Of a stretch of DNA of 64,000 nucleotides, positions 16,283-53,594 are shown piece by piece. A model generated the notes under the pieces. It saw only the letters and a list, made by a program, of their open reading frames with translations, was not told where the DNA came from and did not search any database. Source of the stretch: a virus; the IMG/VR virus record IMGVR_UViG_3300017991_000003, positions 96,001 through 160,000 of that record. One strand, 5' to 3'. The first letter of the stretch is position 1. Every line of letters begins with the position of its first letter. The position numbers were made by a program, and so were the translations under genes.

Positions 16283-16592
16283 GTTCGACAACAAAGAGTG
16301 GCGAGCCGCAATCCGTGCGCTGAAGGTGCTGTGCCCTTTGAGCGCTCGGGTTTCTGTCACTCGCGTCGAACTACCCGACGGTGATCTAGGCGACTGCGAC
16401 AACCGTCACGGCCGCTACTACATTCGGGTTCAGAAGATGGAGGACCTAGCCTTGTCCCTTCTGATCCTGACCCACGAGTGGGCTCACGCCATGATCTGGC
16501 CCCTGTACAAGGACCGCGACCCAGACCACACTGGGCACTTCGGGATTGCGTGGGCAGAGGCCTACCGCACCGTCTTCCACAACAACAAGTAG
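16272..16592 (+). CDS. small protein with HExxH motif (possible minimal zinc metallopeptidase-like)
   Basis: LTHEWAHAM HExxH motif; ORF track. Confidence 0.4.
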   Translation: MMAKFDNKEWRAAIRALKVLCPLSARVSVTRVELPDGDLGDCDNRHGRYYIRVQKMEDLALSLLILTHEWAHAMIWPLYKDRDPDHTGHFGIAWAEAYRTVFHNNK

Positions 16593-16593
16593 C

Positions 16594-23907: not shown

Positions 23908-23926
23908 CACTGGGAGGGAGTGTCAG
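23904..23926. repeat. palindromic element copy 2 (CTGACACT-GGGAGGG-AGTGTCAG)
   Basis: overlaps stop codons of the convergent genes 21982-23907 and thyX. Confidence 0.8.
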
Positions 23927-24780
23927 TAAGGCTGCGTCTGCATGCCTGTGATCTCCAGAAGTCCGTCGACCTCTTCGGTCTGAGCATCGAACAAGAGGCC
24001 CGGGCACTGCTCCATCAGGATCTCGTAGACCTGGTTGAAGATCAGGCGGATTTCCCATTCGGCATGCCGGGAGGTGCGCATCATCAGCATGTGCCGCAGG
24101 GAGCGGACGTTAGCGGACCACCCCAGCTCGTTGGCTTGCCCGTTGGGAAGGACGCGTCGCAGGGCCGAGGTGACCTTCTTCTTGGTAGCGAAGTCCCGGA
24201 TCGGCTCGTCCGGTAGGGCTGATGGGTCTCCCCAGCTGCGGCGCGCTTCCTCGAGCTCGTCATCGGAGCAGACGCCCAAGCGGAGCCGCATCGCGTCGTA
24301 GTGGTCTGTGATGGCGTTGATGACTAGCTCTACTTCATCCATGACCGGAGCCAGGATAGGGTCGACGACGACGTCCAGCTGATCCGTGCGGACGTACCGA
24401 CCACTGGTTTGACTGAAGGCCGTGCCGGCGCGATGCCGAACCATCTCGTGGGTGAAGACGCGGGAGCAGTTCGTGGTTACGAAGTTGAAGGACACATGCT
24501 CGAAGACGCTGCCGTGTCCGTGCTCCAGGGTGGCTCGCACGTTGTCGGCGATGTCACGCGTGCGGCTGATGTTCTCGTTCTTGCCTGGGGTCAGGGCGCT
24601 GTAGCAGAGCTTGGCGTAGAAGCTCGAGATGATCTCCAGATCAGACAGCCCCTGCTGCCTCGCCTTGGCGATGTCAGCCAAGAAGGAGGATTGGTTCGTG
24701 GCTCGGAGATACCCGCTGACAGCGTGGAGGTCCAGCTGGGTGCATCCGATGAGGTGTGTGGTGGGTTCGACGATGGTCAT
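23923..24780 (-). CDS. thyX: flavin-dependent thymidylate synthase ThyX
   Basis: ThyX signature R-H-R-x7-S in HEMVRHRAGTAFSQTSGRY; internal ATG 24780 (MTIVEPT) preferred over ORF-track 24864. Confidence 0.8.
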   Translation of the reverse strand: MTIVEPTTHLIGCTQLDLHAVSGYLRATNQSSFLADIAKARQQGLSDLEIISSFYAKLCYSALTPGKNENISRTRDIADNVRATLEHGHGSVFEHVSFNFVTTNCSRVFTHEMVRHRAGTAFSQTSGRYVRTDQLDVVVDPILAPVMDEVELVINAITDHYDAMRLRLGVCSDDELEEARRSWGDPSALPDEPIRDFATKKKVTSALRRVLPNGQANELGWSANVRSLRHMLMMRTSRHAEWEIRLIFNQVYEILMEQCPGLLFDAQTEEVDGLLEITGMQTQPY

Positions 24781-24896
24781 AGGTGTAGGGGGCTGCGGGG
24801 TTGAGGCTCCAGTAAAGCAGATGGGACCGGCTTCTGCCTTGTTCTTGTCTCTTTTTCTTGACAAGCAGGCACACGCGCAAGAGACTGAGTCAGATC

Positions 24897-28366: not shown

Positions 28367-30778
28367 ATGCACCGAGCCACACTCATTACCACCGTCCCCA
28401 ACCTCCCCAAGTTCATCCTACGCGGCGTTGTACCACTGCCGCGTGGCTACACATTCGGCGGACCCGGCCAGGACTGCCCTTTTACCATCAAACACCCCCT
28501 GCTGGATGAGAACTGCCCGACGCAGTGGCAACCGGTAAGCTACTACCCGTCGGAGGTGGGACAGGACGCCGAGGTCGCGTCGGCCGAGATTCTTGCCGTG
28601 ATCGACCGCGATGATCTTCCGCCGGGTGTGCGCGCCTTCTTCCAGCTACATGAAGAGGCCAGTGCCTGGTCGTACCCCGAGCCGGCCACCGAGGCGATCC
28701 TGATGACGCAGATGAAGGACGCGGTGCGTCTGCGCGCTACGGATTTCTTCGGCAACGTCTACGAGGCATCCCTGTCTCGCAACATGTTTGCGCAGGTCCC
28801 CGGAGGCCCGAGCGGGCTACCCACCGGTCCGGGAACGATCCTCGACACGCGGACGCATCGCATGGGCTGTGCGATGGGCACGGTGGAGACACACGGGTGG
28901 CTTGACAAGAAGGGCCCGGGTACGGCGGAGGCCCTGCCGTGGTTCTTGGGCTGGCAGGCATTCTTCTCTGTCCGCACCGGCTCGGACGTGGTCGAGCTCG
29001 CGCTCAACGTGCACAACGCCTTCAGCCCTCCCAAGAATCTGTCGGACCCTGCGGGCCATATGTACTTCAAGGAACTCAGCCTGGTGGTGCCCAAGGGCTG
29101 GGCGATCATGTCGGAGTGGCCAGAGCCGTCGATGGGTTCTCCGAAGCCTGATGACAACGACGCCTTCTACGTCATCCCGCTGGTGGCGGCCAATGAGGAC
29201 GGCACGATGCATATGATGGCGCAGCAGGCGGAGCGGGAGTGGCGCCTAGTCCTCTTTGAGGAGGGGAACCAGAGCAACGCACAGGAGGTGCTCAACCAGT
29301 ATGGTTGGGCTGTCCCCGCGCACGACACTGCCGAGGCGGGCCTTGAGAATCCCTGGTGCTGGCAGAACGAGGAGACGGGGAACTACCAAGCACAGCGTTT
29401 CCCGGTCCCGTCCCTGGACCCGCAAGCCTGCCTGGAGCGCACCCTCGTCGAGTACTCGAAGATCCGGGCGGCGTTGGCCTCTCGTACGGCGGTGCAGTAC
29501 CCCGACGCCAAGCCTTATGGTTACTTCCATCCCTACGGCGTGTCCTATGGTGGCATGACTGGGGGCAGCGAGATCTTCCCCTTCGACGGTCTCGTGGAGC
29601 TTACGGCCGGGTCGGTCGAGGGCTTGCTCTACACCCGAGCGCTGCACTTCATGTACAGCTGTCGTCAGCAGGGGATGATCTACAACATCAAGGGCAAGCC
29701 GACCCGCTTCGAGGACTACCTCAAGGATGGGACGTGCGACTGGCACTACCTCAACGCCAAGTGGTATCCCGGCTATGACGGGGACTACGACTTCCTGAAC
29801 GCTGTCTCGACACACCGGCCGGCCATCGAGGCCGCGGGACAGCTCCCGGTCTACGAGCCGCAGGTGACTCGCGAGTATGGCAGCTACTCTTCGTACTATC
29901 AGCCGCAGGACTTCCAGCACTACGTCCGACGCACGCGTAGCTGTCGGACGCTGGCGTGGCTGGACAACGACCCGCTAGCCAAGCGCAAGCTCGAGATGCT
30001 CGCCGAGATCGGGCTGATGTGGTACCACGACATGCCGAGCAACTCGGCGGCCGGCGTCTTCGGCCACCTCTCCACGGAGATCACCGACGGCGGCGACGGC
30101 ATGACCATCCCCGAGGGGCGTGGCGCTGCTTGGGTCATGGACACGGCGGCCGCGGCCTATGCCGTAGGTGAGAAGAGCTGGCGAGACCGCGCTGTCGTCC
30201 GCTCCTGGTTCGAGGCGGTGACCTTCGTACTACGCTCAAGCCTGACCCCGGCCGGCATCTGTCAGGGCTACCGCAAGGGCAAGATGGTCACCATGCACCC
30301 CTTCCTGGGGCAGTACGTCGTCTGCCACCCGTTCGAGCAGGGCCTCCTAGCCCACGGCATGCAGGCCATCCTCAAGTCGGTGTGTGAGGGGCTCGAGGGC
30401 GCCGAAGAAGGACTCTGTCGTGAGTTCCTCCAGATCCAGGCTGATGGGCTGGCCCGCTACATGTGGCGTGACGGTACTGGCGGCGCGTGGACGAAGATGG
30501 CGGTGGGCCCACTCGATGGTGAGCCCTTCGAGTCCATTGACGAGGTCCCCGAGGACGGGTTCTATGGCCCCTACCCCGAGGTCTGGCAGATCGTTCCCGG
30601 CATGGCCTACGCGCTGGCCGATCCCGAGCTCTCCAACGTGACGCGCACCGCACTCATGGCTCGGGTCACGGACTATGCTGGCGGGCACCCGGATCCTGTG
30701 GAGTGGTTCGAAGGGCAAGGCCTGAAGATGATCGAAAACCGGGCGCCGCTGCTTGCATGGCTCCAGTTGAACGACTAG
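28367..30778 (+). CDS. large hypothetical protein (803 aa), W/Y/G-rich; possibly enzymatic or structural
   Basis: ORF track; ATG 28367; followed by hairpin plus T-tract terminator. Confidence 0.65.
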   Translation: MHRATLITTVPNLPKFILRGVVPLPRGYTFGGPGQDCPFTIKHPLLDENCPTQWQPVSYYPSEVGQDAEVASAEILAVIDRDDLPPGVRAFFQLHEEASAWSYPEPATEAILMTQMKDAVRLRATDFFGNVYEASLSRNMFAQVPGGPSGLPTGPGTILDTRTHRMGCAMGTVETHGWLDKKGPGTAEALPWFLGWQAFFSVRTGSDVVELALNVHNAFSPPKNLSDPAGHMYFKELSLVVPKGWAIMSEWPEPSMGSPKPDDNDAFYVIPLVAANEDGTMHMMAQQAEREWRLVLFEEGNQSNAQEVLNQYGWAVPAHDTAEAGLENPWCWQNEETGNYQAQRFPVPSLDPQACLERTLVEYSKIRAALASRTAVQYPDAKPYGYFHPYGVSYGGMTGGSEIFPFDGLVELTAGSVEGLLYTRALHFMYSCRQQGMIYNIKGKPTRFEDYLKDGTCDWHYLNAKWYPGYDGDYDFLNAVSTHRPAIEAAGQLPVYEPQVTREYGSYSSYYQPQDFQHYVRRTRSCRTLAWLDNDPLAKRKLEMLAEIGLMWYHDMPSNSAAGVFGHLSTEITDGGDGMTIPEGRGAAWVMDTAAAAYAVGEKSWRDRAVVRSWFEAVTFVLRSSLTPAGICQGYRKGKMVTMHPFLGQYVVCHPFEQGLLAHGMQAILKSVCEGLEGAEEGLCREFLQIQADGLARYMWRDGTGGAWTKMAVGPLDGEPFESIDEVPEDGFYGPYPEVWQIVPGMAYALADPELSNVTRTALMARVTDYAGGHPDPVEWFEGQGLKMIENRAPLLAWLQLND

Positions 30779-37003: not shown

Positions 37004-37090
37004 TGGTGCAGGAAGGGGGACTCGAACCCCCACGCCCGGGTGGGCACGTGGACCTAAACCACGGGCGTCTACCGATTCCGCCACTCCTGC
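37004..37090 (-). tRNA. tRNA-Leu (anticodon TAG)
   Basis: cloverleaf read by hand on minus strand: acceptor GCAGGAG/CTTCCTGC, anticodon loop TTTAGGT, long variable arm, T-arm GGGGGTTCGAGTCCCCC, encoded CCA. Confidence 0.8.
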
Positions 37091-37164: not shown

Positions 37165-37250
37165 TGGTGCGGGAGGAGGGACTCGAACCCTCACGCCCGA
37201 AGGCAGTGGATTTTGAATCCACCGTGTCTACCGATTCCAACCACCCCCGC
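37165..37250 (-). tRNA. tRNA-Leu (anticodon CAA)
   Basis: acceptor GCGGGGG/CTCCCGC, anticodon loop TTCAAAA, long variable arm, T-arm GAGGGTTCGAGTCCCTC, encoded CCA. Confidence 0.8.
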
Positions 37251-39109: not shown

Positions 39110-39541
39110 TTACAGCGAATCCAGGGCATCTAGGGCGTCTGTGAGGCCCTCAGCAGCCTCTTGAGCAGCGTCCGCCTTGGCGCTCTTCTTCCGCTTCTTC
39201 CCCTTCTTCTTGTGATGCAGGGCGGCCAGGCGAGCCCCCTGCTCCCGCTGAGCGTCCGTCACGGACTCCTCGCATAGGGTCTTGTACTCCGCCTCGGTGG
39301 GGATGACGCCCTCGGGTCGCGTCTTGGTGTCCGCGTAGGGGCGGTGGGCCCAGAAGAAGCAGACGTGGTCCGGGCAGTTCTTGATGGCGTCCCGGTAGCC
39401 CTCGTTGCCGACACAGGCTCGGCAGTTGAGGTCGACAGCGGATCGGAGGCTGCTACCGTGATCAGCTTTGACGGCGACGGTGGGGCGGGCGAGGCGGACG
39501 TCGTTCTCGACGCAATCGATGATGTCAGGCTTGGTGGTCAT
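39110..39541 (-). CDS. hypothetical protein with Cys pairs and K-rich C-terminus (143 aa)
   Basis: ATG 39541; palindromic element lies immediately 5' of the start. Confidence 0.45.
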   Translation of the reverse strand: MTTKPDIIDCVENDVRLARPTVAVKADHGSSLRSAVDLNCRACVGNEGYRDAIKNCPDHVCFFWAHRPYADTKTRPEGVIPTEAEYKTLCEESVTDAQREQGARLAALHHKKKGKKRKKSAKADAAQEAAEGLTDALDALDSL

Positions 39542-39543
39542 GT

Positions 39544-39566
39544 GTGGCACTGGCTAGGAGTGTCAG
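39544..39566. repeat. palindromic element copy 4 (gTGGCACT-GGCTAGG-AGTGTCAG)
   Basis: divergent region; immediately 5' of ATG 39541 (minus) and just upstream of a TTGACA hexamer preceding the GroES-like gene. Confidence 0.75.
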
Positions 39567-39625
39567 GGTGGGAAAACTGTCTCCATATCTTGACAGAGGG
39601 GCGCCGGCTAGGCACGATCCCTGGC

Positions 39626-40141
39626 ATGGAAACGACAACGACAGAGGCCCGCCCTGAGCTACAGCTTCGGCCGTTGGCCGGGCGGGTGATGATTCGAGTG
39701 GACGAGGCCCCCACGATGAGCGCAGGTACGCGAGGCCGTCAGGTCTATCTACCCGAGAGCGTCCAGAAGGAGGAGAAGGCGAACTACCGGTTCGGTACGG
39801 TCGTGGCCCTAGGGGACCCCGCGCTGCATCCGAAGACCGGCAGGCCGATCCCGTGGGCTGTGCATGTAGGCACCAAGGTCTGCTTCCAGTTCGGGGCTGA
39901 CCTTACAGGTGAGCGAGAGCTCCAGTACACAGGAGGCGTGGCCCATGCGGTGTGCTTTGCTGAGGATCTGATTTACGCCATCGAGGATGATTATGAGATT
40001 CAGCCGACTCCCGTATGCCCCAACAGCGTAGGGGTTGCGCTACGCCGCGCTCTGATGAACGACGACTGGCTGACCGAGGAGCAGGTTGACACCCTGAGCC
40101 GGCGGCTCGCGTGCACGATTGCCGGGGTTGTGCCCGCGTGA
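39626..40141 (+). CDS. GroES/Cpn10-like protein with C-terminal extension
   Basis: LRPLAGRVMIRVDE...SAG...GTVVALGD...VHVGTKVCF pattern resembles co-chaperonin GroES; internal ATG 39626. Confidence 0.45.
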   Translation: METTTTEARPELQLRPLAGRVMIRVDEAPTMSAGTRGRQVYLPESVQKEEKANYRFGTVVALGDPALHPKTGRPIPWAVHVGTKVCFQFGADLTGERELQYTGGVAHAVCFAEDLIYAIEDDYEIQPTPVCPNSVGVALRRALMNDDWLTEEQVDTLSRRLACTIAGVVPA

Positions 40142-40776
40142 GAATCGGCCGCACTTCCGATCTAGCGCCCTGGCCGCTCTTCATCGGCTTCTACACCCCG
40201 GAGTACGAGGAAGAGGCCGGGGAGCTTCGTAAGACCCTGGACGCGTTCGGGCTGCCACACGAGATCGAACCCGTCGAGTCCACGGGTAGCTGGTGGCTCA
40301 ACACGCAGATCAAGGCTCAGATCATTTTGCTCAAGCTACGGGATCACCTGGGTCGACCGCTGGTCTACCTGGACTGCGATGCCCGAGTCAGGCAGGCTCC
40401 TACCTTGTTCCGCTCCCTGCATCACCAGTGCGACTTCGCGGCTCACTTCCGACCGGATCGACGATTCGAATGCGGTCGAGAGCTTTTGAGCGGGACGCTG
40501 TACTTCAGCGGCTCGCCGGCTTGCCAGGGCCTGGTACAGGCTTGGATCGATGAGAATGAGCGCCAGGCTGCGATCAAGAGTAGCAACAAGCTCCGCCTCA
40601 TGGATCAGAGAACCTTGCAGACGGTCCTGGCTAAGGAGATCGAGGAGTACGGTCTTATGTTCACCGAGCTCCCTGCTACCTACGTTCAGATCTTCGACAT
40701 CATGCGCGACGCCGGCGACCCGGTGATCGAGCATCTCCAGGCCAGCCGCCGATTGAGGAACAAGGTTGGTCACTAG
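40138..40776 (+). CDS. hypothetical protein, possible glycosyltransferase-like
   Basis: GTG start in GTGA overlap; YLDCDARV acidic motif; assignment weak. Confidence 0.4.
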   Translation: MRIGRTSDLAPWPLFIGFYTPEYEEEAGELRKTLDAFGLPHEIEPVESTGSWWLNTQIKAQIILLKLRDHLGRPLVYLDCDARVRQAPTLFRSLHHQCDFAAHFRPDRRFECGRELLSGTLYFSGSPACQGLVQAWIDENERQAAIKSSNKLRLMDQRTLQTVLAKEIEEYGLMFTELPATYVQIFDIMRDAGDPVIEHLQASRRLRNKVGH

Positions 40777-40788
40777 ACTCATGACTCA

Positions 40789-41547
40789 ATGAAGCGACTG
40801 ATCTACCAGGTCTGCGTTGGCCCGCCTGACCCGCTCTACGACAAGTGCACGCGCACTGTTGCGGCCTACTGCAAGCGCCTCGGCATCGCGTACATCAAGC
40901 AGACCGAGCCGGTCCTGAAGATCCGCCCGAACCCCGCTACGAGCGGGAGAAGCCAGAACGCTGTTGAACGACTAGGGTACCTGCCGATCTTCGAGAAGGA
41001 GAACGCACTCGCCCACCTTGGTGAGTTCGATCAGGTGGCCATTATCGACTCCGATATCTGGATCAGGGAGGAGGCACCCAACATCTTCGAGGAGCTCGAG
41101 GAGGGTGTTGACTTCATGGGGGTGGTCGAGCGAACCGCACCCATCACGCCGCAGTATGATCGGAAGCTCAAGAGCTACGCGCGCGGCCAGTACGGTCGTC
41201 CGGACTTCCCCTTCATGAACATGGGGCTCATGCTCATGAACAAGAGCCTGCGCCGCTTCTGCCCCGAGCCTCCTCGGGAGTTTCTGGCGCGTCCGGAGTT
41301 CCAGGCCTTCGTGGATGGGCGGGGGGCCTACAAGTGGAGCACGGACCAGACCCTGCTCAACACCTGGTTGACCAGCGATCCCGACATGGTCGTGAAGCCT
41401 CTCGACTGGCGGTGGAACGCCCTGTACGGGGCGCTGGTGCCCGGGTCGATAGAACAGGCCCACTTCGTTCACTTCTTCCTCAAGAACCACCTGGATAGCC
41501 AGGATCCCGACAAGCTCCTTCAGACACAAGGCCGCAAACGCGTTTAG
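40789..41547 (+). CDS. putative glycosyltransferase (nucleotide-diphospho-sugar transferase, DxD type)
   Basis: AIIDSDIW DxD-like motif; ATG 40789. Confidence 0.45.
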   Translation: MKRLIYQVCVGPPDPLYDKCTRTVAAYCKRLGIAYIKQTEPVLKIRPNPATSGRSQNAVERLGYLPIFEKENALAHLGEFDQVAIIDSDIWIREEAPNIFEELEEGVDFMGVVERTAPITPQYDRKLKSYARGQYGRPDFPFMNMGLMLMNKSLRRFCPEPPREFLARPEFQAFVDGRGAYKWSTDQTLLNTWLTSDPDMVVKPLDWRWNALYGALVPGSIEQAHFVHFFLKNHLDSQDPDKLLQTQGRKRV

Positions 41548-41551
41548 CCCC

Positions 41552-42229
41552 ATGAGCAAAGTACCACCCCTATTCATTCACGTACCGAAGACCGGTGGCA
41601 TGTCCGTGCACCATGGACTAGGCCGCCTGATCCGAGAGACGCTGTCTCGAGACAAGCTGAAGTCTCTGGACTACGCGGCGACGATCGAGCAGCACATGCG
41701 CTCCAAGGGTGAGCCTACTCCGGGGTACCGTCATGCCCGGTGGCGTGACGTCAAGCCGGGGTGGCGGGATAAGGGCCGCTGTTTCACGGTGCTGCGCAAT
41801 CCGTGGTCCCGTGTGGTCAGTCGCTACCGGTTCGGACTCAATACCTGGGCGACGCGTCCCTACAACTACACGAACTTCGAGGAGTTTCTTGCGGAGCATG
41901 AGGAGTGGGGCCAAGAGCCGTACTACTGGCACCGCGCCGTGCGGGGCTGGTACCCTGCGGTGGATCACGTGACGGACGGCCAGGGCAACCTCAAGTGCGA
42001 TGTTCTGCGTACGGAGCACCTGGACGATGACATCTGGGCCTACTTCGGGAAGCGGCTACCTCCGCGCCGACGCAACGTCACGCGCGGCGATGCCGTGGAC
42101 TACAAGACCTTCTACGACGATCGAACCATCCAGCTGGTGGCAGACTGGTATGCCGAGGACATTGAGATGTTCGGCTTTGACTTCGACACGCCGGCGACGA
42201 AGAACCTGTGGGAGGGCCTAGGAGCATGA
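41552..42229 (+). CDS. sulfotransferase family protein
   Basis: FIHVPKTGGMSV (HIPKTGG-type PAPS 5'-phosphosulfate binding motif) and RNPWSRVVSRYRF. Confidence 0.6.
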   Translation: MSKVPPLFIHVPKTGGMSVHHGLGRLIRETLSRDKLKSLDYAATIEQHMRSKGEPTPGYRHARWRDVKPGWRDKGRCFTVLRNPWSRVVSRYRFGLNTWATRPYNYTNFEEFLAEHEEWGQEPYYWHRAVRGWYPAVDHVTDGQGNLKCDVLRTEHLDDDIWAYFGKRLPPRRRNVTRGDAVDYKTFYDDRTIQLVADWYAEDIEMFGFDFDTPATKNLWEGLGA

Positions 42230-42783
42230 TGGTTGGCAAGAACCAGGGCAGTCTCCTGGTTGTGCAGCAGATCCCAGAGAACAGCGTGGGTGCCGAGCTC
42301 GGCGTCTGGCGCGGGGACACATCAGCCCGCTTCCTAGCTAGCGGTAAGATCAAGCACTTGCACCTGGTGGATGCTTGGAGTCCCGACCCTTACTACGGCA
42401 TCGAAGGCTACCGAGAGAAGTACGCCAAGCTGGTCGGATCGGGTGATCTCGACGCCTTTCGCGCCTACTACGACGCGGTCCTAGCCGGTGTCCGCAGGCG
42501 GTTTCAAGGCCAGCCCGTTACGATCCACCAAACCACTGTGCACGAGTTTCTGACTGAGCCCCCGGAGGATCTCGACTGGGTCTACGTGGACGCGAGTCAC
42601 GAGTACCTCGACGTCCTTGATGATCTCGAGCGCTGTGCCCGTCACGTGGATCTGATCTTTGGGGATGACTACGGCAACAAGCCAGGGGTGGTTCGCGCTG
42701 TCGACGAGTTTGATCGGACGCACCCCGAGTGGCACCTCCAGGTCCTGGGCAAGAACCAGTACCGCCTCGATAGGAAGGTCTGA
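42226..42783 (+). CDS. class I SAM-dependent methyltransferase (TylF/O-methyltransferase-like)
   Basis: ELGVWRGDTS and VYVDASHEY; ATG 42226 in ATGA overlap. Confidence 0.5.
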   Translation: MMVGKNQGSLLVVQQIPENSVGAELGVWRGDTSARFLASGKIKHLHLVDAWSPDPYYGIEGYREKYAKLVGSGDLDAFRAYYDAVLAGVRRRFQGQPVTIHQTTVHEFLTEPPEDLDWVYVDASHEYLDVLDDLERCARHVDLIFGDDYGNKPGVVRAVDEFDRTHPEWHLQVLGKNQYRLDRKV

Positions 42784-43289
42784 TGCACCCATCAAGCAAG
42801 GCCAATATGAGGGAGGCCTGGGCACTCGTTCCCGACCCCCACCGCGTCGGGGACGTCCTTGATGTAGGCGGCGGTCGTGGCGGGGAATACCAGGAAATCT
42901 GGAAAGGGTGTGCTAGCTACCGAACGGCTGACATTGCAGGTGACTGCGACCTCTTGATGCCTGGTGAGTACGAGATTCCACTTCCGGATGATTCGATCGA
43001 TGTGGTGATTAGCGGCCAGACACTGGAGCATGTCCGCAACCCTTTCCGCCTCGTCACCGAGATGCGCCGGGTACTGAAGCCCGGTGGCTACGTGGTGATC
43101 ATCGCCCCGTCCGCGGGCCCGGCCCATTTCAAGATCGACTGCTGGCGCTTCGTCCGGGATGCGTTCCGGGCCATCGCCCACGAGTGCGATCTAGAGGTTG
43201 TTGCCGATTGGATCTATACCGGGGACTCTGGCCGAGGTCCTAACAAGCAGTGGAACGATCACACCTTCGTGGGGAGGAAGCCCGAGTGA
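42783..43289 (+). CDS. class I SAM-dependent methyltransferase
   Basis: VLDVGGGRGG (motif I), VISGQTLEHV, LKPGGYVVI. Confidence 0.6.
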   Translation: MHPSSKANMREAWALVPDPHRVGDVLDVGGGRGGEYQEIWKGCASYRTADIAGDCDLLMPGEYEIPLPDDSIDVVISGQTLEHVRNPFRLVTEMRRVLKPGGYVVIIAPSAGPAHFKIDCWRFVRDAFRAIAHECDLEVVADWIYTGDSGRGPNKQWNDHTFVGRKPE

Positions 43290-43987
43290 ATGCGTATGCC
43301 ATCACGCTCTTCGGTAACGAGACCAGCACCCAGAGCGTTGACAAGCTCTTTGAGTCCCATGTGGCGCTTGAGCAGCATTTCGATCTGATCCGCTTCCCGG
43401 CCATCACTCCTGACCAGAACCAGGAGATCATGGCGGAGGAGCGCCTGGTGTGGACCTATCCCTGGGAAAACAACCGGCTGGATGGGATCACTGGCTTGAA
43501 GCTGCATCCCTACGCCACACGTGATCGGGGTGCGCGGATCGCCTGCTTCCTATCGCACTACCACCTCTGGAAGCTGGCCTGCGAGACTGGGGAGTGGGTG
43601 ATGATCCTGGAGGACGACACGGTATTCACCAAGCACCTAGACCTAGACAGCCTGCCTTACCGTGAGTGGAGCGCCGTCGGCATCAACAACCCACTAGGGG
43701 CGACGCGTCGAGCGCCTGTGTTCCACGACAAGGTCGTGGCGCAGCGTCCGACTCCGATCATCGAGACCCCGTGGGTTGATGATGAAGTCAGGACCCCGCA
43801 GGGGCTGGCCGGCCACAGTGCCTACATGATCAGCCCTGAGCTGGCTAAGGACCTGATCCATCGAGCCCGTCATGCGGGTTGCTGGCCTAACGACGCATTG
43901 ATGTGCAAGCAGCTGTACCCTGGGAAGCTCGGGGTCACAACCGAGTTCTACACCCGAGTCCAGCAGACCCCGAGTACTCTGGCATGA
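43286..43987 (+). CDS. glycosyltransferase family 25-like
   Basis: GTG start (GTGA overlap); ACFLSHYHLWK and ILEDDTVF motifs. Confidence 0.5.
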   Translation: MNAYAITLFGNETSTQSVDKLFESHVALEQHFDLIRFPAITPDQNQEIMAEERLVWTYPWENNRLDGITGLKLHPYATRDRGARIACFLSHYHLWKLACETGEWVMILEDDTVFTKHLDLDSLPYREWSAVGINNPLGATRRAPVFHDKVVAQRPTPIIETPWVDDEVRTPQGLAGHSAYMISPELAKDLIHRARHAGCWPNDALMCKQLYPGKLGVTTEFYTRVQQTPSTLA

Positions 43988-44646
43988 AGGCGCGCGTCAT
44001 CACCCTGATCCACAACAAGCGATCTGTTCAGGTAGCGAATCGGTGCATTGAGAGCGCTGCAAGGTTCGGCGTTGAGGTTGATATCTTCCCGGCCATCAGG
44101 GCGGCGGATAACCCCAAGGCCCTGATGTTCGAGCGGAAGTTCTCGATGAAGGGGTTTGAGGACAATGAGTACTCGCGTCTTGAGCCGTGCCTGGCTACGT
44201 TCCTCTCCCACTCTCGCCTATGGGAGCTTGCGGTGCTGCTAAAGGAGGCAGTCCTGATCCTCGAGCACGACGCTGTGTTCCAGGCTCCGCTCCCGGAGAT
44301 GATCGAGGAGCGGGTGAAGATGCTCTGCAATCTGGGCAAACCGAGCTTCGGCTCCTTCAAGACCCCGAAAGAGGGGCTAGGCCCGTTCGTGTCCAAGCCC
44401 GGCGGCTATCTAGGCGGCGCCCACGCGTACCTGGTCCAGCCTGAGGCCGCTGAGGTGATGTTGGAGAAGGCCAAGACAGAGGCGGAGCCGGCCGATGTGT
44501 TCATCCAGAAGAAGCGCTTCCCCTGGATGACTGAGTACTACCCGTGGCCGGTGATCTGCGATGACTCCTTCTCCACCATCCAGAAGCCCGCAGGTTGCAC
44601 GGCCAAGCACAACAAGGTCGAGATCATCGATCAGGATGAATCGTGA
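43984..44646 (+). CDS. glycosyltransferase family 25-like (paralogue of previous)
   Basis: ATG 43984 in ATGA overlap; ATFLSHSRLWE and ILEHDAVF. Confidence 0.5.
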   Translation: MKARVITLIHNKRSVQVANRCIESAARFGVEVDIFPAIRAADNPKALMFERKFSMKGFEDNEYSRLEPCLATFLSHSRLWELAVLLKEAVLILEHDAVFQAPLPEMIEERVKMLCNLGKPSFGSFKTPKEGLGPFVSKPGGYLGGAHAYLVQPEAAEVMLEKAKTEAEPADVFIQKKRFPWMTEYYPWPVICDDSFSTIQKPAGCTAKHNKVEIIDQDES

Positions 44647-44939: not shown

Positions 44940-45197
44940 TCAGGGGCGGAGCCGCAGCCCCCGAGAGGTGACCAGCACCTTACGGTGCGGGACCTTGGGG
45001 AGCTTCGGCAGGGGCGGGAGGTCGACGTCGGTGTCGACGACCGCCTCCACCAGGGACTCGCCGTCCGCCCCGCTGATGTGGAGGCGGCGGTGCTCGCTGT
45101 TCTCGGTCACGTGGACCGAGCCCAGCGGGGTTTTGACCTTGGCGATGGTTCGCTCGGGGGCGATCCACGCCAAGATCTCGTCGAAGAACCCCATCAC
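44940..45197 (-). CDS. hypothetical protein (85 aa)
   Basis: ORF track; last gene of a 5-gene overlapping operon. Confidence 0.4.
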   Translation of the reverse strand: MMGFFDEILAWIAPERTIAKVKTPLGSVHVTENSEHRRLHISGADGESLVEAVVDTDVDLPPLPKLPKVPHRKVLVTSRGLRLRP

Positions 45198-45376
45198 TTG
45201 CAGAGCAGCGGGTTCTTCCCCCGCTGCTTGATGCGGCGCACCCTCGCGCGGAGGGTGTGCTCGATGGAGAGGGGCTGCCCGCGGAGGCGGGAGGTGACGG
45301 CGATGTCTAGGCCGCGCATGGGGGAGATCTTCCCCCGGCGGACCTTGAGCATCACCTGGCGACTGAGATTGCTCAT
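45194..45376 (-). CDS. hypothetical basic protein (60 aa)
   Basis: ORF track; overlapping start/stop. Confidence 0.4.
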   Translation of the reverse strand: MSNLSRQVMLKVRRGKISPMRGLDIAVTSRLRGQPLSIEHTLRARVRRIKQRGKNPLLCK

Positions 45377-45573
45377 GTGGTCAGGTGGTCGGCGAAGGCC
45401 CAGGTGACGGCCTCCGCGAAGTTGGGGGTGAGGGTGGCGTAGCCCGTCTCTACGTGGGAGACGTGGGACTGACTGAACCCGATACGCGCAGCGAACTGCG
45501 CTTGGGACAGGCCCAGCCCCTTCCTGATCCAGCGGACCAGGCGGGGGCTGAGCTCGACGGTGGTGGCGATCAC
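45373..45573 (-). CDS. XRE-family helix-turn-helix transcriptional regulator
   Basis: LGLSQAQFAARIGFSQSHVSHVETG HTH pattern. Confidence 0.6.
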   Translation of the reverse strand: MIATTVELSPRLVRWIRKGLGLSQAQFAARIGFSQSHVSHVETGYATLTPNFAEAVTWAFADHLTT

Positions 45574-45857
45574 GACGCCTCCTCCGCGTCCGCCCAGGCT
45601 CGGGCGATCTGACGCATGGGAGCCCTCTGGGAGAGGGGCCGGACGGTCACGAGAGTGATGAGACGCTTGTGGCCGATCGTGATGAGCGGCTGCTCGTAGC
45701 CGCCCCGCGAGGCGGCCTCACGCACCTTCTTTTTGAAGGTGGTGAGCTGCGGGCTGTGAGCAGGCAGGCCGATCAGGGATTGACCTACTTCCTCGAACAC
45801 CTCGCAGATGACCTCGGGCATGAGGGGCCGCAGCGGTTCTCGCATGGGGTTCTTCAT
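45570..45857 (-). CDS. hypothetical protein (95 aa)
   Basis: C-terminal protein-like part of a longer R-rich ORF; internal ATG 45857 in ATGA overlap. Confidence 0.4.
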   Translation of the reverse strand: MKNPMREPLRPLMPEVICEVFEEVGQSLIGLPAHSPQLTTFKKKVREAASRGGYEQPLITIGHKRLITLVTVRPLSQRAPMRQIARAWADAEEAS

Positions 45858-46198
45858 CGGATCTCGAACCCCAGCTTTTCGGCGAGTTCGACCGTGGCGG
45901 TGCGGCTCGTGTGGTGGCGGGAGAACGCCACCTCGCCGGTGGCGAGGTCCACGTACCAGCGGTTGCCGCCGCCAATGCCGTAGATCGTCACGTGACCGGA
46001 CTGGCCACGCATACGCAGGGCGTGGCCCCACGTGTATTGAGAGGACTCGGGGTCCTCGATGGAGTCCATCTGGCTCAGGAGCCAGGCGACCCCGTTTGCG
46101 TCGCGGCGCTCCTCGTCGTAGGTCGACGAGAAGCCCTCGACTTCTGCCATGTCGATGAGCGTCTCGGCGCTCATGATACGACCGGTCAGGGTGGTCAT
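45854..46198 (-). CDS. hypothetical protein (114 aa), first gene of operon
   Basis: ORF track; ATG 46198 directly abutting the conserved 42-bp leader cassette. Confidence 0.5.
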   Translation of the reverse strand: MTTLTGRIMSAETLIDMAEVEGFSSTYDEERRDANGVAWLLSQMDSIEDPESSQYTWGHALRMRGQSGHVTIYGIGGGNRWYVDLATGEVAFSRHHTSRTATVELAEKLGFEIR

Positions 46199-49805: not shown

Positions 49806-52800
49806 ATGGCTGAGTTCAAGGACTGCCAGAGCCCGAGCCCCCTGACCGGGCGGATCGGCCCCGATCTGATCGAAGAGGTTGGCGGGGTCTCTCTGGCAGG
49901 TGTGTTGGCAGGCACGGAGACGCTGCCGGTTGGTGCAATCCCTGTCACAGCCCCGCTTTATGACAGTCCGAGCCCTACAGGTACGGCTATTGGACTGCGG
50001 TTGGATTCGAGCCTGACGGTTGATGCCCAGGGCCGGCTCAGTATTGCTGGAGCCCCATCGCCCGCGGCCCACGCCTCGAGCCACGAGCCTGGCGGGTCTG
50101 ATCCGATCACCCCTGCTGCCTTTGACGGGCTTATCACCCCGCCGGTCGCCACGACGGTTGTCCTTGGCGGTGTCAAGGACGGTGACGGCGTCTCGATCGC
50201 CGGTGACGGCACCCTGACCCTCGATCTGGCCGCCGCCAGTGGCCTCGAGATCAGCGGCGGGACCCTGAGACTGGCACTGGGTACCGGTGTCAGCTTCAGC
50301 GGCAACGATCTGGTCCTGGACGAGGCCACGGACTCCACGCTGGGCGGCATCATCGCCGGCACGGGTCTATCAGTCAGCTCGGGTACGGCGAGCCTCAACG
50401 CCCCCCAAGTCACGGGAGCCTCCCTAGCGGGCAGCACTCTGGTCTGGGATACCAGCCCGAGTGCCCAGAGTCCCAGCCCTGCTCTGAGGCTTCCGGCGAG
50501 CTTCACGTACACCAAGGCGATCCCGCAGTCGCAGCTGCCGACCGCGGCCTACGGCAGCCCGGGCAGCTCGAGCCCCAGCCCGCAGCTCGGCCTTGTCCGC
50601 ATCTATGGCCCGAGCGAGGGCCTGACGCTTAGCGATGGGCTCCTGTCGCTGGCGACTCCGATCAGCACGGATCACCTACCCACCGCTACTGGTCTAGGTG
50701 GGCGAGGCATCGTCCGCGCGGGCCTACTTGACGGTACGGGCGTCTACGTCTCCAACAGTACGACCGGCCAGCTGGCGATCCTGATTGACGCCACGTCGGA
50801 CACGTTGGCGTTGTCGTCGAGCGGGATCAAGGTCAAGTCCAATCGCTTCCTGGCGCTGACTGGCACCGGTAACCTCCCCAGCCCCGCGGCGAGCCCGAGC
50901 CCGGGGACTGACGGCTGGATGACCGGGTCGGTTCGATTCACCAACGACCTGGGTGAGCCTGCGATCCGCACCGGTAACCAGCGGATCCGCTACGAGTTCG
51001 GGGCCAGCCCGTCTCCCGGGGCGATCCTGGCATCGGCTGATCTAAGCGATCTACTAACGTACCAGGAGATCAGCACACTCATCTCCCAGGCTGAGCTTGG
51101 TGTCGAGGTTTGGACTCCTGGGCGACCTGTGCAGGCAGAGCCGGGTACGAGCCTAGGTGCGTTGGCGGAGCTCTCGGCCGGGGATCGGTTCCTTACGAGC
51201 ACGTCGTCCAACACCAACCCCGGCGGTGACTGGAATGCGCACAACTGCGTGTTCGCGGTCTGGACGGAAACGGCTCCCGATACCTTTACCTGGGTCTATG
51301 AGACCCCCACGGTCAACACCTGGTTCACAGACGACGTAACTGGGGACACGTGGGCTGTTGTTGTCGGCTCCCCCTCCCCGAAGTCGCCCTCACCGAACCC
51401 GTCGCGAGAGGCTTTCCGGTATCGCGCTCGTCAAGATGACACAGCATCGACGGCCCGAGCTGGTCGCGTGCGTGTCCCGACGACCAGTGGCCTCGTCATG
51501 GACGGCGAGGATATTCGGCTATCCCTCGCCTCGGACATCGGGGTCAGTACGGGCCTGCGTCTGATCACCCGAGCTCGCAACAACGCGCTAGCTCTCGATC
51601 TCAGCCGGTCCCAAGGGATCTTGGAGCTCAACTCCGACGGGCGCCTTCAGGTTGCCGCGTCCTCGATCCAGGCCACGGAGATCGCGGACAACACCATCGT
51701 CCTCGACAACCTGGCCGCGGATCAGGTGACAGGCGGTACCAAAGACTTCATCGCCACGCAGTACGACGGGCTATCCGTCCGGCTGGTGGGGGACTCGGAA
51801 GACTTCCGCGTCACTGGGGCGCCTGTCAGCACGGCTACGACCATTCTGATCCACACCGAGGACGGTATCGGTGTGGCGGAGGAGTCGATCAACACTGACG
51901 CTCTCTCGGACGAGGCGGTTAGCTACAGCAAACTCCTGATGCCCACGGCCTCCGGTCTGGAGGACAACGGGCAGGACAAGGTCCGGGTCAAGCTCCAGAC
52001 CCGCAGCGGCCTCGAGCGAACGGTGGATGGCCTGGCGGTCAACATCCATGACGTGGTGGACGATGCCACGATTGAGCTCGACACATCCACGGGCGGCTTG
52101 CGCGTCAAGACAGGTAGCCTGACGTCGTCGTACTTCGCGTCGGGCCTGGCGATCTCGGCCTCGGTCCTCACGCTGGGAGCCCCTATGCTCTCGTCGAGCG
52201 GGCTCCTGACCTTCTGCTACCAGAGCCCTCTGGTCCTGACCGGCAGCCCCGGCTGCTTGACGATCGGCGAAGGCTTGATCAGCTCGCCGTATCTCGGCAC
52301 CGGGTCGGTCAGCTACGCCAAGCTCAAGCTGGCGAGCCCCTCCGGCATCACGCAGACGGCCGGCGGTATCAAGGTCGACATCTCGACGGGTCTCGCCTTC
52401 AGCGGCAACCAGATCGTGGTCGACCAGGTGCCGGCAGACGCGATGGCACTGGATGCGGATTCGGCGTTGTACGCCGCTAGCCCGACCAGTCCGCTGACGC
52501 AGCTGGAGCTGAGCATCCGGGTCAGCAGCCCGTTCACGCAGACGGGTGGTACGCTGGATCTAGCGGACGAGGGTGTTCAGGTGAGTCACCTGGATCGCTC
52601 CAAGCTGCGCGGTAGCTTCCTGGCCAGCGGCCTCGAGGCCGGCCTAGGTACCCAGACCAGTCCCTTCGACTCTTGGGTCACGAGCCCGGCGTTCTACACC
52701 GGCTCGGACGCCCCGGGTATGCGGGTGGCTACGCGGACGCGATCCGATCACGACTACCTGGATGCGGCGGGTCAGGGACAAGGCACGTTCGAGCCCTATA

Positions 52801-53594
52801 GCTTGACGCTGCTTCAACTTGGTGGCACGCCCTCGGGCAGCGACTACCAGAACCGACTGGCCCCGACGCTCAACAGCATCGGTCTTCCGCACCTAGCCCT
52901 CGGCAACGAGACCCTGGCCCCCACGGACTCCGATCGGCTGCCGACTGGTTTCGGTAGCTACAAGGCGCTGGTCCAGAGCGGGAAGCTGCCCACGAGCCCG
53001 GTGACGAGCCGCGGCTGGGCAGTGGCTAACCTGTCGGAGAACATCCCAGCTGTCCGAGTCGGTCCGGGCCTCAGCATCACGGCTGCGGGCTTCGTGGTTC
53101 CGAGCGATGTCCAGGCGGATCAGATCCTCCTGGGCACCACGTCTCGCGAGACCAGTCCGCGCGGGGTCTCGAGTCTTGCGCTTGTGCGTGACGGGGGATT
53201 GAGCAGCCCGGTCACGGATGGGGCGCTGGCGCTCGGCTACGACGTATCGGACTTCGAGGTCACCTCGGCGCTTGGCCTTGGCCGACGTCAGGCGTACCAA
53301 GAGGAGTACACGGGCGCCTCGGTTCCCGCAGCGGCGAGCGGGTACTACACCTTCGCTCTGACGCTGGGGAGCTCGCAAGGCCTTGTGCCCGGCACGGTGT
53401 CGGTCCACGTCAACGGCCTACGTCTCGAAAGCCCCTTCTTCAGCTACACCAGCCCCTCGATCACCTCGAAGGAGGTGTACCTCAACGAGTCGGCAAGCCC
53501 TGGCCCCAACCTGGCCTACACGTTGAGCCAGTCTACTAGCCCGGACGTTCTTGACCGGGTTGTCATTCGCTATCGAACCCGTCCGACCTCATGA
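49806..53594 (+). CDS. giant S/T/G/P-rich fibre-like protein (1262 aa); putative tail fibre or adhesin
   Basis: ATG 49806; recurrent SPSP motifs; Gly/Ser/Thr-rich repeats. Confidence 0.6.
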   Translation: MAEFKDCQSPSPLTGRIGPDLIEEVGGVSLAGVLAGTETLPVGAIPVTAPLYDSPSPTGTAIGLRLDSSLTVDAQGRLSIAGAPSPAAHASSHEPGGSDPITPAAFDGLITPPVATTVVLGGVKDGDGVSIAGDGTLTLDLAAASGLEISGGTLRLALGTGVSFSGNDLVLDEATDSTLGGIIAGTGLSVSSGTASLNAPQVTGASLAGSTLVWDTSPSAQSPSPALRLPASFTYTKAIPQSQLPTAAYGSPGSSSPSPQLGLVRIYGPSEGLTLSDGLLSLATPISTDHLPTATGLGGRGIVRAGLLDGTGVYVSNSTTGQLAILIDATSDTLALSSSGIKVKSNRFLALTGTGNLPSPAASPSPGTDGWMTGSVRFTNDLGEPAIRTGNQRIRYEFGASPSPGAILASADLSDLLTYQEISTLISQAELGVEVWTPGRPVQAEPGTSLGALAELSAGDRFLTSTSSNTNPGGDWNAHNCVFAVWTETAPDTFTWVYETPTVNTWFTDDVTGDTWAVVVGSPSPKSPSPNPSREAFRYRARQDDTASTARAGRVRVPTTSGLVMDGEDIRLSLASDIGVSTGLRLITRARNNALALDLSRSQGILELNSDGRLQVAASSIQATEIADNTIVLDNLAADQVTGGTKDFIATQYDGLSVRLVGDSEDFRVTGAPVSTATTILIHTEDGIGVAEESINTDALSDEAVSYSKLLMPTASGLEDNGQDKVRVKLQTRSGLERTVDGLAVNIHDVVDDATIELDTSTGGLRVKTGSLTSSYFASGLAISASVLTLGAPMLSSSGLLTFCYQSPLVLTGSPGCLTIGEGLISSPYLGTGSVSYAKLKLASPSGITQTAGGIKVDISTGLAFSGNQIVVDQVPADAMALDADSALYAASPTSPLTQLELSIRVSSPFTQTGGTLDLADEGVQVSHLDRSKLRGSFLASGLEAGLGTQTSPFDSWVTSPAFYTGSDAPGMRVATRTRSDHDYLDAAGQGQGTFEPYSLTLLQLGGTPSGSDYQNRLAPTLNSIGLPHLALGNETLAPTDSDRLPTGFGSYKALVQSGKLPTSPVTSRGWAVANLSENIPAVRVGPGLSITAAGFVVPSDVQADQILLGTTSRETSPRGVSSLALVRDGGLSSPVTDGALALGYDVSDFEVTSALGLGRRQAYQEEYTGASVPAAASGYYTFALTLGSSQGLVPGTVSVHVNGLRLESPFFSYTSPSITSKEVYLNESASPGPNLAYTLSQSTSPDVLDRVVIRYRTRPTS

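Follow-up and report, generated by a model that had tools for sequence, protein, structure and literature searches.

A widespread phage cassette of glycosyltransferases with exchangeable tailoring genes, and its predicted sulfated, methylated allele

The DNA studied here is a window of 64,000 nucleotides (64 kb; positions 96,001 to 160,000) from the IMG/VR virus record IMGVR_UViG_3300017991_000003, the whole stretch that was analysed, and our subject is an island of predicted glycan-synthesis and glycan-tailoring genes at 40138-44646 of that window. The source is a very divergent uncultivated phage with a genome of ~193 kb, of which the window makes up a third; besides the window, the analysis covered +/-10 kb around the loci of relatives, which carry L numbers below.

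Genes of the island and their predicted products

The island was originally predicted to hold seven consecutive plus-strand genes, and we confirmed this arrangement: seven tightly packed, co-directional open reading frames (ORFs) occupy the span fully. A 12-nt gap separates ORF1 from ORF2 and a 4-nt gap separates ORF2 from ORF3, after which each gene overlaps the next, ORF3 and ORF4 by 4 nt (ATGA), ORF4 and ORF5 by 1 nt (TGATG), ORF5 and ORF6 by 4 nt (GTGA) and ORF6 and ORF7 by 4 nt (ATGA). The coding signature typical of this genome is present in all seven (G+C at third codon positions, GC3, 0.72-0.83; at second positions, GC2, 0.38-0.46), and a promoter and terminator scan gave no signal beyond chance. 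The encoded proteins are small and single-domain (168-252 aa), with no transmembrane-like segment in any of them. The enzyme assignments first made from the sequence hold for all seven, by Pfam, PHROG and motif matches and, for ORF1 and ORF2, through their homologues and fold models; where that prediction had left the number of glycosyltransferases (GTs) at three or four, we count four, together with one sulfotransferase and two methyltransferases.

Neither of the first two ORFs has a Pfam match of its own (for ORF2, none at E <= 0.1), and PDB sequence and profile searches with ORF1, ORF2 and their family alignments returned no match. About a quarter of the listed ORF1 homologues carry PF03407, and D79 and D81 of a DxD motif as well as an ELLSGT motif are invariant across the homologues. 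The AlphaFold (AF2) model of ORF1 (mean confidence score, pLDDT, 93.6) has as its top PDB fold the capsid-glycosylating GT A64R of the chlorovirus PBCV-1 (2p6w; E 2e-8, TM 0.65-0.67; sequence identity 11-13%), followed by glycogenin, GlyE and the GT domain of LH3. On the strength of this model we predict that ORF1 is a retaining GT-A glycosyltransferase of the PF03407/A64R-like type.

More than 2,012 homologues of ORF2 reach an identity of at least 50%; some of them bear PF01501, and the DSD motif of the family (D87, D89) is invariant. Foldseek searches with its AlphaFold model (pLDDT 91.8) matched XXYLT1 (5e-9), the UGGT catalytic domain (9e-9), A64R (2e-8) and LgtC (4e-6), with many viral GT-A proteins also among the matches. 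Its modelled fold thus identifies ORF2 as a probable GT8-like retaining GT-A glycosyltransferase; we call it GT8-like and not a GT8 member because the window protein is without a Pfam match and PF01501 occurs only in some of its homologues.

ORF3 matches Sulfotransfer_2 (PF03567) over residues 7-210 of 225, with 27 bits against a cut-off of 22, as well as the phage sulfotransferase family phrog_3347 (E 4e-9). It contains both motifs for the sulfate donor 3'-phosphoadenosine-5'-phosphosulfate (PAPS), a 5'-PSB motif of the PKxGxT/S type at residues 10-16 (HVPKTGGMS, within FIHVPKTGGMS) and a 3'-PB motif of the RxPxxRxxS type at residues 82-90 (RNPWSRVVS), and both are kept in 23/23 family members of the collected loci. 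Most of its 650 homologues bear PF03567, and cellular homologues at 44-51% identity come from Roseibium, Stappia, Breoghania and Rhodobacter. ORF3 is accordingly annotated here as a predicted PAPS-dependent sulfotransferase of the carbohydrate type. PDB matches of ORF3 to designed TIM barrels were discarded, as their source was a short WRD-rich stretch.

The next two products are class I methyltransferases, which use S-adenosylmethionine (SAM). ORF4 matches PF13578 (Methyltransf_24; 35.2 bits, cut-off 26.3) and phrog_2675, and ORF5 matches PF08241 (52.6 bits against 21.2, E 7e-14) and PF13489 (41.3 against 27, E 2e-10). The two may be O-methylating enzymes rather than enzymes of another kind of methylation. 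ORF6 and ORF7 are paralogues, 27% identical, that both match Glyco_transf_25 (PF01755; 49.1 and 38.4 bits, cut-off 24). In GT25 enzymes an acidic E-x-D motif after a hydrophobic strand binds metal and nucleotide; this motif reads MILEDD in ORF6 and LILEHD in ORF7, and most family members have EHD or EDD. Weak PDB matches of ORF6 are to the GT25 proteins COLGALT1 and mimivirus R655. As predicted from these families, the soluble enzyme set should be able to build a short oligosaccharide, by four transfers, and to sulfate and methylate it.

Table 1. Coordinates of the island genes and of two neighbours discussed in the text
Feature	Coordinates	Strand	Description
GroES-like (Cpn10) gene	39626..40141	+	First gene of the co-directional block; Pfam Cpn10
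ORF1	40138..40776	+	212 aa, GTG start; predicted PF03407/A64R-like retaining GT-A; frame gene
ORF2	40789..41547	+	252 aa; predicted GT8-like retaining GT-A; most conserved frame gene
ORF3	41552..42229	+	225 aa; Sulfotransfer_2; variable-middle gene
ORF4	42226..42783	+	185 aa; class I SAM methyltransferase, Methyltransf_24; variable-middle gene
ORF5	42783..43289	+	168 aa; class I SAM methyltransferase, Methyltransf_11/23; variable-middle gene
ORF6	43286..43987	+	233 aa; GT25 'a'; frame gene
ORF7	43984..44646	+	220 aa; GT25 'b', paralogue of ORF6; frame gene
S/T/G/A/P-rich protein	49806..53594	+	1262 aa, 8 SPSP motifs; putative glycan acceptor

A modular cassette on phage contigs

The island is one allele of a widespread modular cassette that is almost restricted to phage contigs. 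At least 556 IMG/VR contigs carry the ORF2 family, and many of these are 140-220 kb long. Among 185,579 GTDB species genomes (one genome per species), the family appeared on 13 contigs of scattered taxonomy, 12 labelled as metagenome-assembled genomes and one as a metagenomic bin, and no homologue of the frame families was found in the isolate bacterial genomes of this set. Searches by tblastn of 50,697 GenBank phage records with ORF2 and with a marine ORF2 homologue gave no match, and ORF6 and ORF7 gave marginal matches at best against GenBank phages.

In 55 non-redundant loci the gene order is the same: an ORF2 homologue, a variable middle, the first GT25 gene (GT25a) and usually the second (GT25b). 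In most loci an ORF6 orthologue (35-54% identity) comes after the variable middle, and ORF7 orthologues, again in most, come after GT25a. The conserved marine gene downstream of GT25b, labelled '?220', is a remote homologue of ORF1 (hhalign 95.7%), and for this reason we regard the four GTs as forming the frame of the cassette. Between these fixed genes the middle ranges from 45 bp to 8.6 kb and from 0 to 12 genes, drawn from 71 protein families. They include NAD-dependent epimerases/dehydratases, DegT aminotransferases, sugar-phosphate nucleotidyltransferases, GFO/IDH/MocA oxidoreductases, hexapeptide acyltransferases, polysaccharide pyruvyl transferases, CmcI-like and other methyltransferases, additional GT8-like and GT25 enzymes, and sulfotransferases. 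None of the 673 cassette genes encodes three or more transmembrane-like segments, from which it follows that the cassettes have no flippases, polymerases, ligases or polyprenyl-phosphate transferases.

The window carries what we predict to be a sulfated, methylated allele of this cassette, and its exact tailoring trio is shared by L016 and by two IMG/VR loci, L072 and L076. The ORF4 family occurs in 11/55 cassettes and the ORF5 family in 6/55. The pairing of a sulfotransferase with methyltransferases had been proposed to be rare among viruses, and this claim is not supported within the family: 15 of the 55 cassettes encode a sulfotransferase, and because a methyltransferase stands alongside it in 14 of these 15, the pairing is not rare here. 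The claim is further undercut by the unrelated phage-like contig of L122 (described below), by the existence of phrog_3347, by phage sulfotransferases in the literature, which had already been noted with no known function (PMC10580990), and by the sulfate-metabolism genes that some giant-virus glycan clusters include (PMC9614988).

Sulfotransferase genes were also seen near ORF1-type GTs elsewhere. L122 (8001-15183) belongs to a 52.7-kb phage-like contig recovered in 21 assemblies, where the genes after an ORF1-family GT encode Sulfotransfer_2, a PIG-L deacetylase, Methyltransf_11, Methyltransf_21 and a second sulfotransferase-like gene. An uncultured 462-kb megaphage (unannotated GenBank record LR756500.1, 134035-137934) has a sulfotransferase homologue ~3 kb from an ORF1-like GT.

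The marine carriers of the cassette have genes for a T4-type terminase (TerL), gp32, UvsX, RNase H and ribonucleotide reductase (RNR), and the cultured TerL nearest to theirs is PA5oct-like, at 52%. Two further families accompany the cassette in marine loci. A ~117-aa protein is encoded directly 5' of the ORF2 homologue in 44 loci (for example L044 9632-9976 and L055 9609-9983), and a representative of it bears two hydrophobic stretches. A marine family of ~206 aa ('?206', for example L020 4940-5557), with invariant GNG, GH and GFD motifs and no Pfam match, lies 3' of the ORF1-like gene, at the downstream cassette end.

The kind of system to which the cassette belongs is known, because glycan clusters of viruses exist in giant viruses, mycobacteriophages and marine T4-like phages. 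What is new is a phage-restricted cassette that joins a fixed four-GT-A frame to an O-antigen-like exchangeable middle and has no cultured carrier. Whatever its product is attached to, the cassette offers, in compact natural form, soluble enzymes with which sulfated, methylated oligosaccharides could be built, and the ORF2 family is a clear marker of a phage group without a cultured member.

Candidate acceptors of the glycan

Two explanations had been put forward for the island, a glycan on virion proteins and a remodelling of the host surface, and these still lead. Our tentative preference is for the first: the cassette may decorate phage virion proteins with a modified glycan, an acceptor that we favour ahead of the core of the host lipooligosaccharide or lipopolysaccharide (LOS/LPS) and, after that, of DNA. 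The enzymes would act in the host cytoplasm during infection on host UDP/NDP-sugars, SAM and PAPS. The four frame transferases would assemble a short conserved core oligosaccharide, in a presumed order and from presumed donor sugars, to which the middle enzymes would add sulfate and methyl groups. The acceptor would be a phage structural protein, the capsid and/or the adjacent fibre-like protein with SPSP motifs, and the released virions would bear a lineage-specific sulfated, methylated glycan coat comparable to those of chloroviruses, Megavirinae and some mycobacteriophages. Membrane, lipid-carrier and export proteins are all missing from the cassette, so the acceptor has to lie within reach of the cytoplasm, and since the window is without a sugar-nucleotide or PAPS-synthesis gene, this allele needs NDP-sugars, PAPS and SAM from the host.

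The frame GTs are 40-70% identical between contigs of 62% GC and AT-rich marine phages, and no other shared genes are detectable in these loci. Three unrelated lambda/Mu-like head modules have an ORF1-family GT one to two genes 3' of the major capsid gene, which was identified by Pfam. Two of the three (L120 6586-11445 and L121 4318-10394) are lambda-like terminase/portal/protease/capsid modules in which the GT is followed by a methyltransferase gene (Methyltransf_11 or Methyltransf_21) and by GT2 genes. The third (L118 6354-7869, GC 67%) has the C-terminal part of a Mu gpT-like capsid protein in frame with a complete ORF1-family GT, 47% identical to ORF1; because the upstream capsid gene looks frameshifted, either a real fusion or a misassembly could explain this arrangement. 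Head-module-like gene order was seen in 14 more loci, whose capsid and portal families are putative, with no confirmation by PDB profiles or local hidden Markov models. The top folds matched by the ORF1 model are those of protein-acting enzymes, which suggests a protein acceptor. Finally, the best GT25-like match in a cultured phage is fused to a 2-oxoglutarate (2OG)-Fe(II) oxygenase and encoded beside a tail-fibre gene. This fusion is a 621-aa protein of Synechococcus phage S-8S55 (L116; OQ504983.1, 29319-31184) with an N-terminal GT25-like region and an annotation as 2OG-Fe(II) oxygenase; the tail-fibre gene lies just upstream of it, a tail assembly chaperone and several more such oxygenases are also encoded nearby, and the domain combination recalls that of LH3, which modifies collagen.

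In the clade of the window the cassette is flanked by a GroES-like gene and by a conserved fibre-like protein, whose SPSP motifs, in two compared lineages, co-vary with the tailoring set. The latter is the 1262-aa protein, which had been described from the sequence as an S/T/P-rich fibre protein with recurrent SPSP motifs. The composition (S 12.4%, T 10.1%, G 11.1%, P 6.5%) and the motifs bear out the first part of that description: there are eight SPSP motifs, a count reached in 0/20,000 shuffles, where the maximum was three. The fibre identity did not find the same support, with no Pfam, PHROG or GenBank-phage homologue of the protein; its composition and fibre-like repeats make it plausible. 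The protein is kept beside the cassette in L016 (61%) and in L018 (38%), and six of the SPSP sites are kept in L016, whose tailoring genes match those of the window, and none in L018, whose middle genes are different.

Several observations weigh against a virion acceptor. The acceptor is read from gene context: no major capsid gene lies within the 64-kb window, the 1262-aa protein is a putative fibre, and the co-variation of its SPSP motifs with the cassette concerns two lineages only. The marine cassettes stand among genes for replication and nucleotide metabolism, not among structural genes, and of six sampled ORF1-family contexts with Pfam-annotated neighbours, three are not beside a capsid gene. 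GT8, GT25 and GT9 are the classic families of LPS/LOS-core synthesis, and a cellular Rhodobacter operon unites a GT25 and a methyltransferase with a sulfotransferase that is 49% identical to ORF3. Likeness of fold to protein-acting GTs, moreover, does not fix acceptor specificity.

Parallels for virion glycosylation come from giant viruses. Virus-encoded soluble GTs and tailoring enzymes without lipid-carrier or export genes are what characterises virion glycosylation, and this combination is present here. The giant-virus clusters (PBCV-1 A064R, A111/114R and A075L; the fibril clusters of Megavirinae) combine, like the cassette, soluble GT-A enzymes with methyl- and pyruvyl-transferases, DegT aminotransferases, dehydratases and acetyltransferases, and their glycans share the logic of a conserved core with clade-specific decoration (PMC7826918, PMC9614988, PMC10117803). 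In the virion glycans of chloroviruses and Megavirinae the conserved core bears lineage-specific methyl, pyruvyl and possibly sulfate groups (PMC7826918, PMC9614988). The differences are that giant viruses infect eukaryotes while the cassette belongs to a tailed-phage-type genome, that their glycans have been determined experimentally while that of the cassette is predicted, and that the frame of a GT8-like enzyme and two GT25 enzymes is peculiar to the cassette.

For phages, a further parallel lies in mycobacteriophages, whose GTs reportedly act on capsid and tail proteins within the cytoplasm of the host (Freeman et al. 2023, Cell Host Microbe 31:1216, cited in PMC12801897). The mycobacteriophage GT genes lie near or within structural modules, like the ORF1-family GTs of L118, L120 and L121. 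Their hosts are actinobacteria, the phage lineages and GT families are unrelated to those of the cassette, and an architecture of conserved frame and variable middle is not described for them. To our knowledge, no sulfotransferase is part of that system.

The other leading explanation, which we take seriously but consider less probable, is that the soluble GTs extend the lipid A-core of the host at the cytoplasmic face of its inner membrane with a sulfated, methylated oligosaccharide; MsbA and Lpt would export the product, and superinfection and the loss of progeny to infected cells and debris would be blocked. Its appeal lies in the enzyme families. Pfam places ORF6 and ORF7 in GT25, 'LPS biosynthesis protein', relatives of ORF2 are assigned to GT8 and in some cases named 'lipopolysaccharide biosynthesis glycosyltransferase' by their sources, and a weak GT9-like family occurs in relatives of the cassette. 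The same Pfam/CAZy families make up bacterial LOS/LPS outer-core clusters (GT8 LgtC/WaaJ/WaaO; GT25 LgtB/Lic2A/LpsA; sulfated LPS of rhizobia), whose enzymes, like those of the cassette, are soluble or peripheral and work stepwise without Wzx/Wzy. What would be expected of such stepwise synthesis is what the cassette has, namely GT8/GT9/GT25-type families without membrane machinery; core-type GTs need neither Wzx, Wzy nor a priming enzyme, which fits the missing membrane proteins. The phage cassette differs from the bacterial clusters in that its frame proteins have no close cellular homologues.

A chromosomal operon of Rhodobacter sp. Har01 (L115 4810-10717; JAJCTD010000004.1) also speaks for a host target. 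It reads GT4, methyltransferase, methyltransferase, GT25, GT4, GT25, sulfotransferase, with methyltransferases of the Methyltransf_11-23 and Methyltransf_21 types and the sulfotransferase that resembles ORF3. On the other side, this operon shares the sulfotransferase alone at high identity: its Methyltransf_11 match extends over 53 residues, and its GT25 match is 32% identical over 81.

Marine phage islands have been interpreted in the same direction. The LPS or 'cell-wall' islands of cyanomyophages and pelagimyophages resemble the cassette in being hypervariable, in combining GT8, GT25 and further GTs with sugar-nucleotide enzymes and in belonging to large marine myophages; they are usually read as serving host surface modification, a function that is untested (PMC7029224, PMC12801897), and the GT8-rich islands of pelagimyophages have been read as modifying the host O-chain against co-infection (PMC7029224, PMC12379486). 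No fixed frame of four GTs around an exchangeable middle is described for the published islands. Against a host target stands the frame of the cassette: its GTs are conserved over phages of very different GC and presumably different hosts, whereas LPS outer cores vary with the host. Because host LPS cores would differ among such hosts, the conserved frame argues for an acceptor intrinsic to the phage. The frame families also have no homologues in isolate bacteria, unlike recently captured host genes, and the ORF1 family is found repeatedly inside head-morphogenesis modules. Classic seroconverting Gtr/Oac phages are temperate and carry an integrase and membrane proteins (GtrA/GtrB/GtrV or an acyltransferase) that act at the periplasmic face, whereas no integrase or lysogeny module was found in the 64-kb window and no membrane protein of the Gtr type among the cassette genes.

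Hypermodification of DNA is an improbable third reading, in which the glycan would sit on a hydroxymethyl-pyrimidine of the phage DNA, as in T-even glucosylation and in the di- and trisaccharide modifications encoded by metavirome gene clusters, and host nucleases would be kept from attacking the genome. Glycosylation of 5-hydroxymethylcytosine by phage GT-A enzymes is known, and GT8-like enzymes are among those adding second sugars (bioRxiv 10.1101/2023.12.21.572611), and the DNA-glycan clusters of Pyle et al. 2023 and the T-even alpha/beta-glucosyltransferases likewise feature phage GT-A enzymes related to LPS GTs, which make mono- to trisaccharides. The marine cassettes lie 3' of RNR/RNase H/PhoH/NT5C-like genes, or of gp32/UvsX, which echoes the position of the T4 beta-gt gene after uvsX; ORF4 matches a PHROG labelled DNA methyltransferase; and hypervariability of such a modification would be of use in an arms race against restriction. 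The clusters of Pyle et al. are, however, defined by a neighbouring C5-methyltransferase (C5-MT) and 5mYOX or a ThyA-like hydroxymethylase, none of which was found in the window. Among the ~86 ORFs of the window, Pfam detected no C5-cytosine methyltransferase, TET/JBP-type dioxygenase or ThyA-type hydroxymethylase, ThyX being the only thymidylate synthase, and neither the window nor 113 loci gave a tblastn match to T4 gp42, gp56, alpha-gt or beta-gt, so a T4-type hydroxymethylcytosine pathway was rejected. The placement of ORF1-family GTs in capsid modules also argues against DNA, as do the up to 12 tailoring genes, since glycans with sulfate, pyruvyl groups and amino sugars would be unprecedented there. 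We know of no sulfo-, methyl- or pyruvyl-tailoring of DNA glycans.

Just as improbable is some other cytoplasmic acceptor, be it a host protein modified in the manner of a toxin, a free or nucleotide-linked sulfated oligosaccharide, or a small molecule. The enzymes are soluble and export machinery is absent, as such a product would allow, and DxD GT-A enzymes include toxins that modify host proteins. Set against this, four conserved GTs and many tailoring options suggest a displayed oligosaccharide under diversifying selection and not a single inactivating sugar, and no toxin-like delivery or targeting domain was detected in these small single-domain enzymes.

If the glycan does sit on the virion, phages of the sea and of saline lakes would bear lineage-specific, charged (sulfated) sugar coats. 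These would affect how virions adsorb to hosts and to particles, how they are grazed and decay, how immune systems and lectins recognise them and how host range evolves, and virus-encoded glycosylation would extend from giant viruses and actinophages to a large group of uncultured tailed phages. With somewhat more reserve than for the virion acceptor itself, we suggest that many aquatic tailed phages, marine and hypersaline, carry a 'serotype' locus like an O-antigen locus, in which the frame would provide a core glycan on capsid or fibre proteins and a rapidly exchanged middle, with sulfo-, methyl- and pyruvyl-transferases and amino-sugar pathways, would diversify it. Virions with a glycan coat, as yet documented in giant viruses and a few actinophages, would on this view be common among environmental phages and open to evolution. 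Were the target host LOS instead, the cassette would be a widespread, phage-specific device by which lytic phages exclude superinfection.

Phage setting and flanking genes

The island had been taken to be phage-borne, and its phage-type surroundings, its syntenic relatives and the distribution of the ORF2 family on viral contigs agree with this. The 64-kb window is gene-dense and consists mostly of ORFans, and the recognisable genes are a phage-type sigma factor (phrog_351), an exonuclease that resembles those of cyanosiphophages and Bacteroides phages, a PolB-exonuclease-like gene, an HD hydrolase, ThyX, an HTH regulator and two genes for tRNA-Leu. When the ~86 window ORFs were scanned with Pfam and PHROG for structural hallmarks and for enzymes of DNA modification, nothing but genes of replication and regulation was identified, and there is no integrase or recombinase by Pfam and no cellular housekeeping gene within the window. 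The possibility that the island is host DNA between att sites was checked and is not borne out: relatives whose island proteins are 59-75% identical share its flanks, in the order GroES-like gene, island, DUF5661 protein and ~1250-aa protein, and a prophage or host-island origin was rejected because att-like flanking direct repeats and a GC anomaly are both absent, the GC and codon-position GC of the island being equal to those of the surrounding window. Synteny extends to a more distant relative, a 183-kb viral contig of IMG/VR.

That the island belongs to a bacterial chromosome, was captured from a host recently or arose by chimeric assembly can be dismissed as very improbable: the contig is metagenome-derived and the sulfotransferase has the cellular homologues noted above, yet the same gene order, with identical gene calls, is found on independent JGI, ENA and Logan contigs, the flanks are kept in relatives, the frame families are essentially missing from bacterial genomes and the phage-type surroundings match the island in composition.

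Reference data cover this phage lineage very poorly. A search of GenBank phages with the island DNA gave no match, and window ORFs of 641-1262 aa (2193-4247, 5502-8981, 21982-23907, 28367-30778, 49806-53594 and 55741-58029) have no Pfam or PHROG match. PDB searches with the 1159-aa and 803-aa ORFs gave no match, nor did tblastn of the 803-aa ORF against GenBank phages. For 16594-17451, which had been labelled GT42/DUF115-like, no Pfam or PHROG match supports that label, and kinship of the ORF 16546-17451 with the marine '?206' family was considered and rejected, none being detected.

Upstream of the island, the Pfam Cpn10 match covers residues 108-184 of the ORF 39344-40141. The start of the GroES-like gene is likely the ATG at 39626 (171 aa) and not that at 39716, as called on the source contigs, because the Cpn10 domain begins upstream of 39716. 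Its TGA overlaps the GTG start of ORF1, which couples translation of the chaperonin-like gene to that of the cassette, and GroES-like homologues hold the same position in L016 and L018. From this position we infer that the GroES-like protein may work together with the cassette.

Downstream, a block of small leftward genes on the minus strand (44940-46198), which includes the HTH_3/HTH_31 regulator (45373-45573), sits between the glycan operon and the block with the DUF5661 and fibre-like genes. The two tRNA-Leu genes (anticodons TAG and CAA; 37004-37090 and 37165-37250, minus strand) lie ~2.4 kb upstream of the GroES-like gene, and the ThyX (Thy1) gene (23923-24864, minus strand) encodes an N-terminal extension of ~80 residues ahead of its domain.

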